A stretch of DNA of 64,000 bases, taken from a virus (taxonomy: Duplodnaviria > Heunggongvirae > Uroviricota > Caudoviricetes). The position numbers and the translations under genes are program-made. The stretch's first letter is position 1. Each line of letters starts with the position of its first letter. The stretch lies in the IMG/VR virus record IMGVR_UViG_2778261540_000003; one strand, 5' to 3'. Positions 52,766 to 58,297 of the stretch are shown in pieces. Below the pieces are notes generated by a model. It did not search any database. It was given only the letters and a program-made list of their open reading frames with translations, and had not been told where the DNA came from.

Positions 52766-53155
52766 TTGTTGGCTTTGGTTTTACTGCCGGAGTGCAGATT
52801 TATATTACGTGGGAAAAAATCATCAACTACGCATGGAGTTGTTTTATTAAGTGAGGTAAGTATGTGGAGAGGTAATAATCATGGCAAAAGCCAGATGATA
52901 CTTACCGAATATAAGCTAGACCACAAAACCAATAAATCACGCTCAGTATATTTGCTCCGGCACAATAGTCGCGTAAGAAATACCGTGCTGGAACAAAATC
53001 TGACAGTTGAAATGGATAATTACGGGGGATTCAAGCCAACAATTTCACTTGATGATTTTCCTCGTGGTTTAAGCGAAAGAGAAGCAATGCTGAAATTAGC
53101 AGAATGGCTACAAAGATTAAGCATTGCTATTGAAGATAACTGGTCTGAACCTTAA
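52766..53155 (+). CDS. Hypothetical protein
   Basis: 129-aa ORF in operon context. Confidence 0.3.
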   Translation: MLALVLLPECRFILRGKKSSTTHGVVLLSEVSMWRGNNHGKSQMILTEYKLDHKTNKSRSVYLLRHNSRVRNTVLEQNLTVEMDNYGGFKPTISLDDFPRGLSEREAMLKLAEWLQRLSIAIEDNWSEP

Positions 53156-53161
53156 ATTTAT

Positions 53162-53536
53162 ATGATGACACTAAAACATTTTCTTGACCGCCCATTATGG
53201 GCGGCAGCCGCAGGCTATGACTTTAATTATATGGATTGCATGTCTTATACTGCCAATGCATACGACCATTCGTTCAGCCTGCTGTTTAATTCTTTAAGAA
53301 TATTGCCGGAAACAGAAGTTGGAGAGCTTCATTTATGGCTATTGGGCTTTATCGCGGCTGTCGTTGGTATTGCTGTATGGCCTTTTATTTTCTGGCTGGT
53401 GGCTGTTGTAGTGTGGTTTAAGTGCAAGGCATACCGGAAAAAGTATTTCTTAGGTGATGGAATGACTGATATTGCCAAAATGAACATTGAAAAATGGACT
53501 AAGGAATGTGAAAAGAAATGGCGCAAAAAGAAATGA
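53162..53536 (+). CDS. Hypothetical membrane protein
   Basis: 124-aa ORF; central hydrophobic helices (LWLLGFIAAVVGIAVWPFIFWLVAVVVWF). Confidence 0.4.
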   Translation: MMTLKHFLDRPLWAAAAGYDFNYMDCMSYTANAYDHSFSLLFNSLRILPETEVGELHLWLLGFIAAVVGIAVWPFIFWLVAVVVWFKCKAYRKKYFLGDGMTDIAKMNIEKWTKECEKKWRKKK

Positions 53537-54291
53537 CAAGAATCACTAAAGAACGCATATCAGAGATTATCGCCCGTATCGAAATGTATGGTCACGGTGC
53601 TGGATATACGGCAGATGAAGTATTGGCACTTGCCCAAATGGCTTTGGCGGCTTGCAAAGATGATAAAAAAATGAAGCTTATCGACTTGTTAGTGAAGGAG
53701 CTGCCCAAGTGCGGCGGGTGGCCTGATGGTATGATCGATTGTCGCCTGCTCAGTGCCAATTTAATGGCGCCATGCGCGACTTTTGCTTTTGGCTCGGACC
53801 ACAAAAAAGACACTTTCTTTGGGCGCAATTTTTGTTGTGAGATTGAGCTTCCAATCGGTGACCTTGATAGCGATGAATACCAGTCAGTTGTCACTCGCGA
53901 ACAATACGAAGCTGCTCTCATAGCGTCGCAGAAAGTCGAGTTCAATGGTGATGAACCTGAAAGTAAGGCTTACAAGTTAGATTTTGAGCAATGGCTGGAA
54001 CAGCAACGCGGGAAAATCGATGTGGACTGCGGTTGTGTGTCTGCGGAAACATTCATGCACTGGTTGCGGGTAGCTTATGTGGCTGGCAACCATCCGGATT
54101 TTCCGGATAGTTCCCAACAATCGCCCAAGAAAAGCGTAAAAACCACTCTGGAAAGAGGCTATCTTGAGGCCGCATTAAAGATTAAGCCGGGCCATACGCT
54201 AGGCGTCATTGATGCCATGTTGGTTCATGAAATGGCGAAGGCTTTATTGCCGCTGGTGGCTGATAAAATTCCGAATAAGGCCGATATCTGA
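53518..54291 (+). CDS. Hypothetical protein
   Basis: 257-aa ORF overlapping the upstream gene end, followed by a terminator. Confidence 0.45.
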   Translation: MAQKEMTRITKERISEIIARIEMYGHGAGYTADEVLALAQMALAACKDDKKMKLIDLLVKELPKCGGWPDGMIDCRLLSANLMAPCATFAFGSDHKKDTFFGRNFCCEIELPIGDLDSDEYQSVVTREQYEAALIASQKVEFNGDEPESKAYKLDFEQWLEQQRGKIDVDCGCVSAETFMHWLRVAYVAGNHPDFPDSSQQSPKKSVKTTLERGYLEAALKIKPGHTLGVIDAMLVHEMAKALLPLVADKIPNKADI

Positions 54292-54302
54292 TCACCATGC
54301 TA

Positions 54303-54334
54303 AAATCCCCTCAATTCACAGAGGGGATTTTTGT
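54303..54334 (+). terminator. Rho-independent terminator
   Basis: AAATCCCCTC-AATTCACA-GAGGGGATTT hairpin followed by a T-run. Confidence 0.6.
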
Positions 54335-54336
54335 AT

Positions 54337-54603
54337 ATGTTGCATAGAGTTTTATGGAAAAGCGTTATTGTCGGCGCGATACTGGCTATATCTGGGTGTG
54401 CAATGGTGCAATACAACGACGGTGAAAAGGTAAGCATACAGTCAGATGGTTGGTATGGCCTGGATAGCCTGCAAAAAACCGCAGATAAAGCCTGTCAGCA
54501 ATATGGGAAGTCTAAAGCAGTATATCAGCATAGCGCGAACGCTAACCCTAATCTTGCGCCCGGTTCGGGTGTTCAGAATACCATCTGGAAATGTGAGCCT
54601 TAA
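54337..54603 (+). CDS. Small lipoprotein
   Basis: [21 protein letters not shown]: signal peptide with lipobox ISGC. Confidence 0.5.
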
Positions 54604-54605
54604 AT

Positions 54606-54845
54606 ATGAGCGACTGGAATATTGCAGCTAAAAGTCAGGAAGAACGGGATAAGGTTAACGTTGATCTGGCTGCCAGCGGTGTGGCGTACAAAGAGCGATT
54701 GAACATACCTGTCATAGCTGAACAGGTAGCCCGCGAGCAACCAGAGAATCTGCGCACCTATTTCATGGAACGGTTACGGCACTATCGGCAGTTAAGCCTC
54801 CAGTTGCCAAAAGGGAACGATCCGGCATATCAGAAAACAGAATAG
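54606..54845 (+). CDS. hot: Homolog of DNA polymerase III theta subunit (HolE)
   Basis: [43 protein letters not shown] aligns closely with E. coli HolE. Confidence 0.85.
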
Positions 54846-54856
54846 TTGTTAGGCTA

Positions 54857-55219
54857 TTACGCAATGCCCGCGCCATTCTTAGCGGGTTTTAAGCCATATT
54901 CACCGTTGTAGAAATTACTCATGTTCCATTCATTGGGAAGCTCTTTTCTGTCCAATGTATAGTGGCGCACGATATAACGATCTTCATCTTCTTCGATGGA
55001 CAGGCGGACATAGCCAATGTGAATTACCGATACGGGCGGTGTTCGTATTGCATAGATGTCGCGAAGATATACCGGTAGCTCGACAAATGCATCAGGTGCA
55101 TCTGTGATGCTCGTTTTTTCACAGTATTCATATAACGCATCGTTGATATCGTTAAGAGATTCATGATCGTATATTTCCAGGTAATTACCGCGATCGCGAT
55201 GGTACTCGATTTTAGCCAT
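54857..55219 (-). CDS. Hypothetical protein (second gene of SOS-box-proximal module)
   Basis: 120-aa ORF abutting the upstream 194-aa ORF with no gap. Confidence 0.4.
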   Translation of the reverse strand: MAKIEYHRDRGNYLEIYDHESLNDINDALYEYCEKTSITDAPDAFVELPVYLRDIYAIRTPPVSVIHIGYVRLSIEEDEDRYIVRHYTLDRKELPNEWNMSNFYNGEYGLKPAKNGAGIA

Positions 55220-55804
55220 TCAAAATCCCCTGTTATCGTTTTGCATTTCTCTAATCCGGTTCAGAACTACTTCATGCTGGACTTGGATAGCGGCTTTTTC
55301 GTTTTCAAGCCGGGCAATAGACATCTCTAATTCTTTGCTGTACCAGGCGAGCTGGGCCAGGTTCATCCGGTTGTGGTCGAGAGTTGGAGACACTTCGACG
55401 CGATCCCTTTCTTCCTGCTTTAATGAGAAGAGATTTATCTCATCCCTTGAGGAAAATTCAGCAACAATTTCTTGTTGATGATCCGGTCGCTGCGGCATCC
55501 TCGCCAGTATAAATGGCGGTTCTTTTGAAAACATGAATGTCGGTTCAGACCGTGTTTTTACCCAGCTTGCCTGCTGTCTTTCGGCAAGTTCACAGGCTTC
55601 ATCATAGTTATCTGCCAAACAAAGCACGGATGGACGGTCCCACGCCCCACCATTCAGACAATAAACTACAATTTTCCCGTCAGGTTGTGTAACCCCATAT
55701 GGATGGTCCCACCAGGCGTCCAGCTGAGCTTTAGAGCGTTTCTCGTTAGGAGTGCAGTCAAAATTTTTGGGCAATACAGGATCGAGAGGAATGCGGGCAG
55801 GCAT
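55220..55804 (-). CDS. Hypothetical protein transcribed divergently from humD
   Basis: 194-aa ORF; its upstream region contains the LexA box shared with humD; C-terminal coiled coil. Confidence 0.45.
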   Translation of the reverse strand: MPARIPLDPVLPKNFDCTPNEKRSKAQLDAWWDHPYGVTQPDGKIVVYCLNGGAWDRPSVLCLADNYDEACELAERQQASWVKTRSEPTFMFSKEPPFILARMPQRPDHQQEIVAEFSSRDEINLFSLKQEERDRVEVSPTLDHNRMNLAQLAWYSKELEMSIARLENEKAAIQVQHEVVLNRIREMQNDNRGF

Positions 55805-55941
55805 AGCTAATTCCTTATTAACTGATTGGCAACGAGGTTACGCTGATCCGTTGGTGATGAATAGTAGCAAAGAGCACAAAATCATCAGCGGTGGTTGATG
55901 TACGTAACGCGTTTGCACCAAAGGTGTCTCTTTAATGTATA

Positions 55942-55957
55942 CTGTATAAATGAACAG
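55942..55957. promoter_or_regulatory. LexA box (SOS operator)
   Basis: CTGTATAAATGAACAG fits CTGT-N8-ACAG inside the palindrome TACTGTATAAATGAACAGTA, 21 bp upstream of humD. Confidence 0.85.
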
Positions 55958-55978
55958 TATTATTGAGGTGAAAACGCT

Positions 55979-56368
55979 ATGGGCTTCCCTTCTCCTGCGG
56001 CGGATTATGTTGAAAGCCGAATTTCTCTTGATCAGCAACTAATCAGGCATCCATCAGCAACCTACTTCATGCGGGCAGCTGATAGCCATCACCGTGAGGG
56101 AATATTGCAGGGTGCTTTGCTGGTGGTTGATTCCTCGCTTACTCCGGTTGATGGTTCTCTGCTTGTGTGCGCTATGGAGGGTGAATATCGCATAAAGAGA
56201 TACAGGAAGTATCCGCGCCAGCACCTGGAGGATTTAAGCACCGGGAAGAAAGAGGCGTTACCAGTAGATGACGATGGATACACGGGCAGTAATGCTGTTT
56301 TTGGTGTGATCACTCATGTCATCAATGATGCCAGAAGTGGGGAGTTTGATGATTGTCCGGTTATTTAA
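55979..56368 (+). CDS. humD: UmuD-like SOS mutagenesis protein HumD
   Basis: 129-aa ORF with UmuD/LexA C-terminal-domain-like sequence, preceded by a LexA box. Confidence 0.8.
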   Translation: MGFPSPAADYVESRISLDQQLIRHPSATYFMRAADSHHREGILQGALLVVDSSLTPVDGSLLVCAMEGEYRIKRYRKYPRQHLEDLSTGKKEALPVDDDGYTGSNAVFGVITHVINDARSGEFDDCPVI

Positions 56369-56395
56369 GCTGCAAAGGGCTGGTGCTTTATGCCT

Positions 56396-56434
56396 GTGAA
56401 GTTTATAATTGTGTACACATAACGAGTACACGAG
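56396..56434 (+). promoter_or_regulatory. phd-doc promoter/operator
   Basis: TATAAT hexamer followed by palindromic elements TGTGTACACA and GAGTACACGAG directly upstream of phd. Confidence 0.6.
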
Positions 56435-56440
56435 GTGTTT

Positions 56441-56662
56441 ATGCAATCCATTAACTTCCGTACCGCGCGTGGCAACCTTTCTGAAGTGCTCAACAATGTT
56501 GAAGCCGGGGAAGAGGTTGAAATCACCCGCAGAGGCCGTGAGCCAGCAGTAATTGTCAGCAAGGCTACTTTCGAAGCCTACAAAAAAGCGGCGCTGGATG
56601 CTGAATTTGCATCCCTGTTTGACACCCTGGACTCCACCAACAAGGAACTGGTTAACCGATAA
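56441..56662 (+). CDS. phd: Antitoxin Phd
   Basis: 73-aa product [73 protein letters not shown] recognised as P1 Phd. Confidence 0.95.
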
Positions 56663-57042
56663 TGAGGCATATATCACCGGAAGAACTTATTGCGCTTCAT
56701 GATGCGAATATAAGCCGCTACGGCGGCCTGCCGGGAATGTCTGATCCGGGTAGGGCAGAGGCCATTATCGGGAGAGTTCAGGCCAGAGTTGCCTACGAAG
56801 AGATCACCGACCTTTTCGAAGTCTCTGCCACCTACCTGGTGGCTACAGCGAGAGGGCATATATTCAATGATGCCAATAAGCGTACCGCGCTAAACAGTGC
56901 GCTGCTATTTCTACGCCGTAACGGGGTGCAGGTATTTGATTCACCTGAACTGGCAGACCTTACCGTAGGCGCTGCGACTGGCGAGATATCTGTATCTTCT
57001 GTCGCCGACACGTTACGTAGATTGTATGGTTCTGCGGAGTAG
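56662..57042 (+). CDS. doc: Toxin Doc (Fic-fold kinase)
   Basis: 126-aa product [40 protein letters not shown]... recognised as P1 Doc; ATAATG coupling to phd. Confidence 0.95.
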
Positions 57043-57046
57043 ATTA

Positions 57047-57226
57047 ATGGCACGCAAATACAACAAGTTGTCCCGTGAAGCGTTAAAGATGCTTCTTGAT
57101 GGCGTGAGTCGCCGCAAGGTAAAGCAATACCTGGTTGGTAAGCAAATTGGTGCCAGGACAGCTATTGCTGTGTTATGCCGTCAGGAAATGGTTGTGCTTA
57201 AACAGAGAATGCCGGGCAGCAGATAA
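57047..57226 (+). CDS. pdcA: Small basic protein downstream of doc
   Basis: ATG 5 bp after the doc stop; name by position. Confidence 0.45.
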   Translation: MARKYNKLSREALKMLLDGVSRRKVKQYLVGKQIGARTAIAVLCRQEMVVLKQRMPGSR

Positions 57227-57253
57227 AGCCCAATCAGTGATTAAAGGTGTGAT

Positions 57254-58297
57254 GTGAAAGCCGTAATTACTCCATTTGTACAGAAAGAGCTTGGCCTCGC
57301 CACGTTCAAAGTGGATCAGGAGGTCAGAAAGCTGGTGGAGGCTGGCCGTAAATTTATTATGGAGCCGGTGCCGCGTGAGTTAATCGAGCACATGGAAGAC
57401 GGCCTCGTTGTTACCGAGCAAACCATGGCAACAAATGAGGCGTTGCAGCCGTTTTTTAACAGCGATGAACTGTTTCGCCGTATTGGTGGAATTGACGCGC
57501 TGGTGGCGTGGTTGCGTAGGAAAGAGGGTCAATGCCAGGCCGCAGATCGTAGTTGGTGTGACAACCATATTGTCCACGCTGAACGAGACAATAGCGCGGT
57601 GTTGTTGTGCTGGCATCACGATAACCATTACCGGATGCGTGGTTTTAATGAGCTGAAAGAAACGCTGCACAATAATCGCGTTAACTGGATACTGGATGTC
57701 GCCCGTCAGGAAATGGGCCTTTCAAATAGCCATGATTTAAGTATTCAGGAGCTGTGCTGGTGGGCTTTCATGCGCAACATGATGCACCTGATGCCGGAAG
57801 AAGTCTGCCGCATATCAATAAATAAGATGAAGGCTACTCCGCAGGATAGCGGACCTCTGAAAGAGGCGGATATTCGCCCGTATGACGATCGCGCTACAGC
57901 ATATGTTCAGATGATGGAAGAACGCGCCGCGCCGATGCGTGCAAAAGTATGCCCTGTGGATGTTGACTCCGACCCTGGCATGGCGCATTTCAAAATACCA
58001 AAACTGCAATCGCTAAAATTACCTGAGTACATGGACTTTGTTGCTTCCCGTCCATGCTGTGGGTGTGGAGCTGCGGGAGCTGGCGCTCACATTACGCCTT
58101 ATATCGTTCGTCATAGTCGATTATGCGCGCATGACATTTACGCAATTCCTCTGTGCCAGTCATGCCAGCGTGATATTGAGCGTGACCGCGATAATTGGGA
58201 GAAGACGCACGGTAGGTTGGCGATGCATCAACGATTGTTCTTTGATTACGCGCTTGGAGTGGGCGTTATCACAAGTCATTCGTCGAGTGTTAGATAA
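57254..58297 (+). CDS. pdcB: Post-doc protein B-like
   Basis: 347-aa ORF; Cys-rich C-terminus ([13 protein letters not shown]...LCQSCQRD); name by position. Confidence 0.5.

Follow-up and report, generated by a model that had tools for sequence, protein, structure and literature searches.

The locus described here raises the question of whether the LexA (SOS) box that separates humD from a divergently transcribed pair of small genes controls both sides, and of what the two genes are for. It lies in a 64,000-nucleotide (nt) stretch of DNA from the Caudoviricetes record IMGVR_UViG_2778261540_000003 of IMG/VR (the whole of this stretch is referred to as the window), in which two abutting open reading frames (ORFs) on the minus strand, of 194 amino acids (aa; 55220-55804) and 120 aa (54857-55219), face humD. 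Taken together, the comparisons reported below are best explained, with moderate confidence, by an accessory operon lxr-upf93.6 of a P1/P7-type phage-plasmid, in which the LexA box would belong to humD and Lxr may serve as an accessory of establishment or anti-defence.

Regarding the identity of the pair, the region of the window was 97-99.5% identical at the nucleotide level to P1, P7 and SJ46 in a megablast comparison with phage records. The 194-aa protein matches phrog_6164 over residues 1-194 (E 6.6e-135), its gene is 97% nt identical to lxr of reference P1 (AF234172), and the protein is 90-92% aa identical to the 190-aa alleles, whereas the 120-aa protein matches phrog_5797 (E 1e-76) and has 97-98% aa identity to Upf93.6 of P7 and SJ46. 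By sequence, the larger protein is P1 Lxr / P7 Upf94.2 and the smaller one P7 Upf93.6; the preliminary description, which had been made from the DNA sequence without database searches and had assigned the pair to no recognisable family, needs to be amended on this point, although neither protein has a Pfam, NCBIfam or PADLOC match. In the P7 record (AF503408) the pair is annotated as upf94.2 and upf93.6 and the box as a LexA site, and in the P1 record the larger gene is annotated as lxr, 'LexA regulated function', with the box labelled 'LexA binding site in the regulatory region of lxr and humD'. Annotation of the genes and of the LexA site in these two records goes back to about 2004, and they are thus already catalogued and not new; the finding itself is real but ordinary and adds little. 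The features of the locus are as follows.

55220-55804, minus strand: lxr coding sequence, 194 aa, homologue of P1 Lxr / P7 Upf94.2 with the NCBI label 'DNA-binding protein'; sequence matches and an AlphaFold2 (AF2) model with a predicted local distance difference test score (pLDDT) of 87
55430-55804, minus strand: N-terminal domain of Lxr, aa 1-125, from alignment; a stand-alone domain of plasmids and phage-plasmids
55229-55360, minus strand: C-terminal long helix or coiled coil of Lxr, aa 149-192, from alignment and structure model
54857-55219, minus strand: upf93.6 coding sequence, 120 aa, acidic, isoelectric point (pI) 4.8, matching P7 Upf93.6
55940-55959, no strand assigned: LexA (SOS) box TACTGTATAAATGAACAGTA, from the motif; annotated in P1 and P7
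55913-55943, plus strand: candidate humD promoter TTGCAC - 19 nt - TATACT, read from the sequence
55861-55869, minus strand: candidate extended -10 element of lxr, TGCTACTAT, proposed from its invariance among intergenic variants
55979-56368, plus strand: humD, UmuD'-like, Peptidase_S24, divergent neighbour of lxr, from Pfam and the P1 and P7 records

P1 Lxr (AAQ14072; P1_gp102) and P7 Upf94.2 (AAQ07574) share 90-98% aa identity with the protein of the window and occupy the same place opposite humD, with the same box and intergenic region. P1 has a 190-aa allele and the window the 194-aa type of P7, the last ~15 codons differing according to whether upf93.6 is present or absent, and Upf93.6 of P7 (AAQ07573), which lies in the same position directly after lxr, has 118 aa compared with 120 aa in the window. 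A three-way alignment of the window, P1 and P7 revealed a mosaic with hot as in P1 and lxr and upf93.6 as in P7: in the window upf93.6 is followed by hot, P7 is without hot and has an IS903-containing region after upf93.6, and in reference P1 hot leads straight to the 190-aa lxr allele with its different last ~15 codons. According to the preliminary description, colinearity of the pair with the lxr region of reference P1, together with a divergent promoter that does not depend on LexA, would speak against its reading, and this alignment supplies half of that, since the 194-aa gene is colinear with lxr of reference P1, where upf93.6 is absent; tblastn found Upf93.6 in seven phage records only.

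Beyond the phage records, the module is 100% identical in the E. coli plasmid pLH85-a-A, is present at a coverage of at least 80% in 125 of the 242 matching PLSDB plasmids and in 101 of 5,426 complete E. coli genomes, and the exact Lxr and Upf93.6 sequences each occur on at least 1000 public contigs. The pair is conserved in phage-plasmid lineages of 63-68% identity (loci L014, L128, L129 and L131 of the comparison set), and the two genes are nevertheless separable, as lxr is found without upf93.6 in reference P1 and in about half of the carrier plasmids, and Salmonella plasmids have a upf93.6 homologue without lxr, the homologue following an unrelated gene of 320 aa. Because reference P1 is without it, upf93.6 is optional.

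Both ORFs are real genes on the evidence of their divergence. Against homologues that are 54-68% identical, the proportion of nonsynonymous differences (pN) is 0.15-0.27 and that of synonymous differences (pS) 0.70-0.95 for the two genes, the values for upf93.6 alone being 0.25-0.27 and 0.76-0.95, and pN so far below pS indicates strong purifying selection on both. The stop codon of lxr and the start codon of upf93.6 are directly contiguous (TGA-ATG), as was to be expected from the abutting 194-aa and 120-aa genes of the preliminary description, and an AGGGGA Shine-Dalgarno sequence lies at 55226-55231, 7 nt 5' of the upf93.6 ATG; with this junction and this ribosome-binding site, the two genes look translationally coupled.

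The 174-bp spacer between lxr and humD carries the sole perfect LexA box of the window (55940-55959), in agreement with the preliminary description. The box is the only match to TACTGT-N8-ACAGTA in the 64 kb even when one mismatch is allowed, with 0.06 matches expected by chance from shuffled sequences, and its CTGT and ACAG arms are unchanged in 22 distinct intergenic variants in which the central bases vary; invariant arms around a variable centre argue for a functional LexA site. Regarding its position, the distance from the box TACTGTATAAATGAACAGTA to the start codon is 20 nt on the humD side (ATG at 55979) and 136 nt on the lxr side (ATG at 55804). On the humD side it overlaps the -10 hexamer TATACT (a 5/6 match, 55938-55943), which has TTGCAC 19 nt further upstream, and the expected humD transcription start would be overlapped as well. 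On the lxr side, reading of the sequence gave no -10/-35 pair that overlaps the box, and among promoter-like elements oriented towards lxr only the extended -10-like TGCTACTAT (55861-55869) is invariant; it is situated ~74 nt beyond the box towards lxr and 56 nt 5' of the lxr ATG. The locus is like canonical divergent SOS operators in having a perfect box between divergent genes but differs from them in that the box is asymmetric, placed on the humD -10 and more than 70 nt from a plausible lxr promoter element.

Comparison with diverged relatives revealed that the box goes with the neighbouring SOS gene and not with lxr. L014 has a perfect box 27 nt 5' of an unrelated 84-aa gene diverging from lxr, in L128 and L129 a homologous 92-aa gene, box included, sits downstream of lxr-upf, and no box was found within 400 nt upstream of lxr in L127, L128, L129, L130 and L131. 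Homologues of the Lxr N-terminal domain (N-domain) in other elements are mostly without a gamma-type or alpha-type LexA box within 400 nt. Regarding membership of the LexA regulon, a consensus CTGT-N8-ACAG operator is thus present near lxr, it does not overlap the lxr promoter or start as read from the sequence, and it is not kept with lxr in the diverged orthologues L127-L131. Since the box follows the neighbouring SOS gene in these relatives, it is most likely primarily the humD operator, and direct LexA control of lxr is rather unlikely; the statement of the preliminary description that the pair shares the box with humD is not upheld. We suggest that lxr has a promoter of its own, ~50 nt 5' of its ATG, and would not be directly repressed by LexA. 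A search of the accessible literature yielded no data on the expression of lxr.

The gene that accompanies the box in these relatives encodes 84-94 aa (MGKDRNYDIIYRGD...LGGGYWLG...) and lies beside lxr in diverged phage-plasmids (L014:4018-4312, L128:5296-5597, L129:5314-5615) with a perfect LexA box 4-27 nt 5' of its start, and it probably represents an SOS gene, as yet unnamed, of such elements. The 84-aa protein of L014 was also compared with that of a 98-aa gene (L150:5409-5705) directly 3' of the genes for Lxr N-domain homologues in Burkholderia plasmids, and the resemblance was confined to a 17-residue 'LGGGY[WH]L' match with a pairwise E of 0.002, which is a lead and not homology.

Investigation of the two proteins by profile and structure searches, which the preliminary description had proposed, yielded the PHROG matches given above and little else. 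Scans against Pfam, NCBIfam and PADLOC gave sub-threshold hits only (DUF7491, E 0.054; DUF7588, E 0.013), PADLOC-DB 2.0 had no family at E of 1 or less for either protein, sequence-profile searches of the PDB gave nothing below E 0.04, and neither predicted structure had a convincing PDB fold match. The Lxr model consists of an N-terminal alpha/beta domain of 125 residues, with the order beta-beta-beta-alpha-beta-beta-alpha, and a coiled coil. The long helix of aa 149-192, modelled with pLDDT 83-91 and carrying a 3/4 hydrophobic repeat at aa 159-187 that can be read from the sequence, bears out the C-terminal coiled coil of the preliminary description; this extension is confined to P1-type phage-plasmid homologues and is the segment with the weak DUF7491 coiled-coil match. 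Lxr and its N-domain are acidic (pI 5.2 and 4.97), as is Upf93.6. No helix-turn-helix or other DNA-binding fold was recognised in the high-confidence model of Lxr, which matched no DNA-binding structure, and the NCBI name 'DNA-binding protein' has no NCBIfam model behind it and finds no support in models, fold or charge. Neither the name 'LexA-regulated' nor this label is supported, and they should not be propagated as evidence. A motif resembling that of beta-clamp binders, 'QLDAWW', was considered in Lxr and rejected on account of its non-conserved Q and because this segment forms a core helix.

For the most part the N-domain makes up a protein by itself, of about 130 aa, with the residues T18, N20, R23, L28, D29, W31, W32, D33, P35, C49, L50, G52, G53, D56 and R57 invariant. 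A full HMMER search gave 478 N-domain cluster representatives at 50% identity, and tblastn located it on 890 PLSDB plasmids, of which 564 are conjugative; its carriers are conjugative plasmids, integrative elements and phage-plasmids of alpha-, beta- and gamma-proteobacteria. In conjugative elements of alpha-proteobacteria it forms part of a block traA-traC-traD-traG-SNase-[LxrN]-WGR-DUF4326-DUF736-(ParE/RelB)-ArdC, which is full or partial in 23 of 52 genome loci (one per species), 21 having an identifiable traG or ArdC; in Rhizobiales elements the domain gene is placed between traG/SNase and ArdC. On PromA-like broad-host-range plasmids the domain is encoded in an operon between the gene of a 67-aa protein and a resolvase gene, near Fic/VbhA and ArdC, on MOBH plasmids some 4 kb away from umuDC and from a Tus-like gene, on IncHI1B/FIB plasmids amid HNH, DnaC, methyltransferase and restriction genes, and in SSU5-like Klebsiella phage-plasmids between gp32, exonuclease and RecA genes and a HEPN/Toprim gene. 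Among 150 distant representatives the domain fusions (an N-terminal extension, one PaaA2-like segment and unannotated C-terminal extensions) gave no pointer to function.

Several observations were made on these N-domain loci. In the SSU5-like elements (L004-L009:6498-7763, L132, L133) the N-domain gene is followed by that of a 421-aa protein with HEPN_Toprim_N and RiboL-PSP HEPN domains, to judge from sequence a set of defence-like genes inside a replication and recombination module. The 67-aa protein (MKIEDLKGDERTLVVVALQALH...), which has no Pfam match, precedes the N-domain and resolvase genes on PromA-like plasmids (L015-L019:4787-6040) and is also encoded within 1-6 kb of the N-domain on IncHI-type and MOBH plasmids (L142:8671-8871; L143:12921-13100; L025:7243-7443), which suggests a linkage of the two genes at the level of the island. 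Many homologues from GC-rich bacteria (P0123, P0126, P0128, P0132, P0160) have a conserved N-terminal helical extension of ~55 residues with the pattern ..AKxxARxxxxxxxxALExxARxxGYxSWxxL.. and a weak Pfam match to the Glyoxalase_8 N-terminus, and representative P0133 has an additional PaaA2 'stability determinant' segment.

Islands of 'establishment and anti-defence' functions bounded by the origin of transfer (oriT) and umuCD homologues have been described (Samuel et al., 2024; PMC11541004). The contexts of the N-domain would fit this picture by analogy, and in P1 lxr adjoins a umuD' homologue. Lxr is also like the products of leading-region genes such as PsiB, ArdA/ArdC and KlcA in being small, acidic, dispensable and carried by many mobile elements, and its N-domain homologues are found near a coupling protein gene, ArdC and umuDC, a likeness of context and composition only; it differs from them in having no sequence or fold similarity to these proteins, and P1 itself is not conjugative. 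Specifically, Lxr had no sequence or structural homology to ArdA, ArdC, KlcA, PsiB or anti-CRISPR (Acr) proteins.

Dispensability is also apparent from published work and from natural alleles. Knock-down of lxr by CRISPR interference left plaque formation of P1 unaffected (PMC10695390). Alleles with a premature stop make up about a quarter of the lxr genes in P1-like IMG/VR contigs, often beside an intact upf93.6, and the stops arise by substitution, with no insertions or deletions within the lxr part; examples are the 111-aa alleles of L104, L107 and L109-L113 and the N-terminally truncated ones of L093, L095, L097, L099 and L102. In PHROGs the N-terminal and C-terminal fragments of Lxr each form a family of their own (phrog_17145 and phrog_10721, respectively).

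A strongly conserved, mobile and acidic N-domain that bears no DNA-binding or enzymatic signature, its occurrence in what may be regions of the establishment type and the dispensability of Lxr for lytic growth lead us to propose, with low confidence and by analogy, that Lxr is a dispensable, protein-binding accessory of establishment or anti-defence, a binder of protein being preferred to a binder of DNA because of the acidic pI and the lack of a DNA-binding fold. In such a scheme the N-domain would bind and modulate a conserved component of DNA metabolism or defence, of the host or of a rival element, and not DNA; this modulation would take place during establishment or maintenance, the coiled coil would dimerise Lxr, and Upf93.6 may be a lineage-specific, optional partner of Lxr. 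A wider possibility, which we consider of low probability, is that the N-domain founds an unnamed, widespread family of establishment or anti-defence proteins of mobile elements, neutralising a conserved host factor of DNA metabolism or immunity, and that P1/P7 gained the dimerising coiled coil and the Upf93.6 partner. The domain is broad in distribution, highly conserved and without a Pfam model, and would be a cheap candidate for screens of anti-defence or host modulation.

Several points weigh against the accessory operon with a humD-owned box. The functional class of Lxr was assigned by analogy, from guilt by association and composition only, and the N-domain resembles no known anti-defence protein in sequence or fold; the Upf93.6 model is of low confidence (pLDDT 65.6). 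Regarding the box, the annotators of P1 and P7 gave the LexA site to lxr too, L014 again has a LexA box between lxr and its divergent neighbour, so that some LexA influence on lxr is possible, and a sigma-70 promoter scan of both strands of the 174-bp spacer, accepting spacers of 16-18 nt only, returned no site.

The most direct alternative is a genuine SOS module, in which one LexA operator would co-repress humD and lxr-upf93.6 and, once DNA is damaged, the proteins would work together with HumD and Hot, for instance as modulators of Pol V, the replisome or RecA. The P1 gene name and the LexA-site annotation covering both genes speak for it, as do the high quality and selective maintenance of the box, the place of lxr between the two replisome or translesion modulators hot and humD, and the homologues that lie close to umuDC, to HumD-like genes (L127, L131) or to another gene with a LexA box (L014, L128). 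The 136 nt between the box and the lxr ATG without an lxr-facing promoter on the box, the conserved extended -10-like element ~74 nt further downstream, the retention of lxr in L127-L131 (in three of them with upf) without an upstream box and the scarcity of LexA-type boxes within 400 nt of most N-domain homologues elsewhere make it unlikely. A role as a DNA-binding regulator or as an accessory of site-specific recombination or plasmid resolution, dimerised by the coiled coil, is distinctly improbable, the protein being acidic, the label 'DNA-binding protein' going without backing from NCBIfam or Pfam, and no resolvase gene adjoining lxr in the P1 lineage; it would account for the use of this label throughout the family, for the N-domain gene of PromA-like plasmids overlapping the resolvase gene by 4 nt, for the SNase-type nuclease gene that adjoins it in alpha-proteobacterial elements, for its frequent position ahead of variable downstream genes and for the extra ~55-residue N-terminal helical module of many homologues. 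The layout with the adjacent SNase gene is reminiscent of the parCBA operon of RK2.

The preliminary description had also pointed to the neighbouring phd-doc locus and to SOS-induced modules as frequent sites of defence or anti-defence cargo. The interval between hot and humD is indeed a known variable region of P1-like phage-plasmids, described as 'region 8' (PMC9603915) and as 'RD-5' (PMC6906374), which upholds the cargo site; defence itself is unsupported, with no PADLOC match and the genes occurring separately. A two-gene toxin-antitoxin, abortive-infection or other anti-phage module beside phd-doc could be read from two small, abutting, coupled genes in a variable region next to a toxin-antitoxin locus and from the HEPN/Toprim gene that adjoins the SSU5-like N-domain homologue. 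No toxin or antitoxin domain and no nuclease, kinase or nucleotidyltransferase fold was recognised in either of the two acidic proteins, neither has a PADLOC, Pfam or NCBIfam match, lxr and upf93.6 do not co-occur obligately (lxr is alone in reference P1 and about half of the carriers, and the upf93.6 homologue is alone in Salmonella plasmids), hundreds of elements have the N-domain as a lone gene, and nonsense alleles of lxr stand beside intact upf93.6. With the genes found apart from each other and no known component matched, this is the least likely of the alternatives and very improbable. The accessory operon of a P1/P7-type phage-plasmid, with the box assigned to humD, remains the preferred explanation.

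The lxr gene is also the target of a CRISPR spacer of E. coli, at the following position.

55531-55562, minus strand: protospacer in lxr for an E. coli type I-E CRISPR spacer, protospacer adjacent motif (PAM) CTG, from the spacer match

The 32-nt type I-E spacer (sense of the CRISPR RNA, GGTAAAAACACGGTCTGAACCGACATTCATGT) is identical to this part of the window; an example array is L155:1470-1560. Together with its flanking repeats it is present in 1,018 of the 5,426 complete E. coli genomes (about 19%), and most matches of the module to E. coli genomes (1,018 chromosomal places) are in fact this spacer. All 37 perfect protospacers in the P1-like loci examined, the window included, have the non-canonical PAM CTG, the close P1-like alleles with an ATG PAM, reference P1 included, are all mismatched at seed position 4, and in three ATG-PAM loci of diverged lineages (L128 type, L130) the seed is intact, with four or five mismatches further in. 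This pattern of PAM and seed could be a signature of escape or just reflect two linked haplotypes. If the N-domain does neutralise a host factor, the spacers in ~19% of complete E. coli genomes and the PAM and seed variants would mark lxr as a locus of ongoing conflict between host and element; the presence of the lxr spacer in about one in five complete E. coli genomes offers a natural system for type I-E targeting and escape of phage-plasmids.

Regarding the neighbouring genes, upf93.6 is followed by hot.

54606-54845, plus strand: hot, DNA polymerase III theta homologue, convergent with upf93.6, from the ORF and a family match

The genes hot (plus strand) and upf93.6 (minus strand) converge at 54843-54859, their stop codons being 11 nt apart, and a terminator-like hairpin was not found between the two stops; judging from this layout, the convergent transcripts must overlap. 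In the P1 counterpart hot and lxr converge 6 nt apart. A search of 53000-58000 against Rfam gave no match. On the 5' side of hot the window has a 257-aa ORF (53518-54291) and a 90-aa ORF (54331-54603) with a lipoprotein-like N-terminus, a position taken in reference P1 by upfM/N/O and the late promoter LPhot. The 90-aa ORF had no match in the phage collection, and since hot starts 3 nt past its stop codon, the two are probably co-transcribed. The region to about 54113 is common to SJ46 and other P1-like phages, in which it is annotated as hypothetical proteins only.

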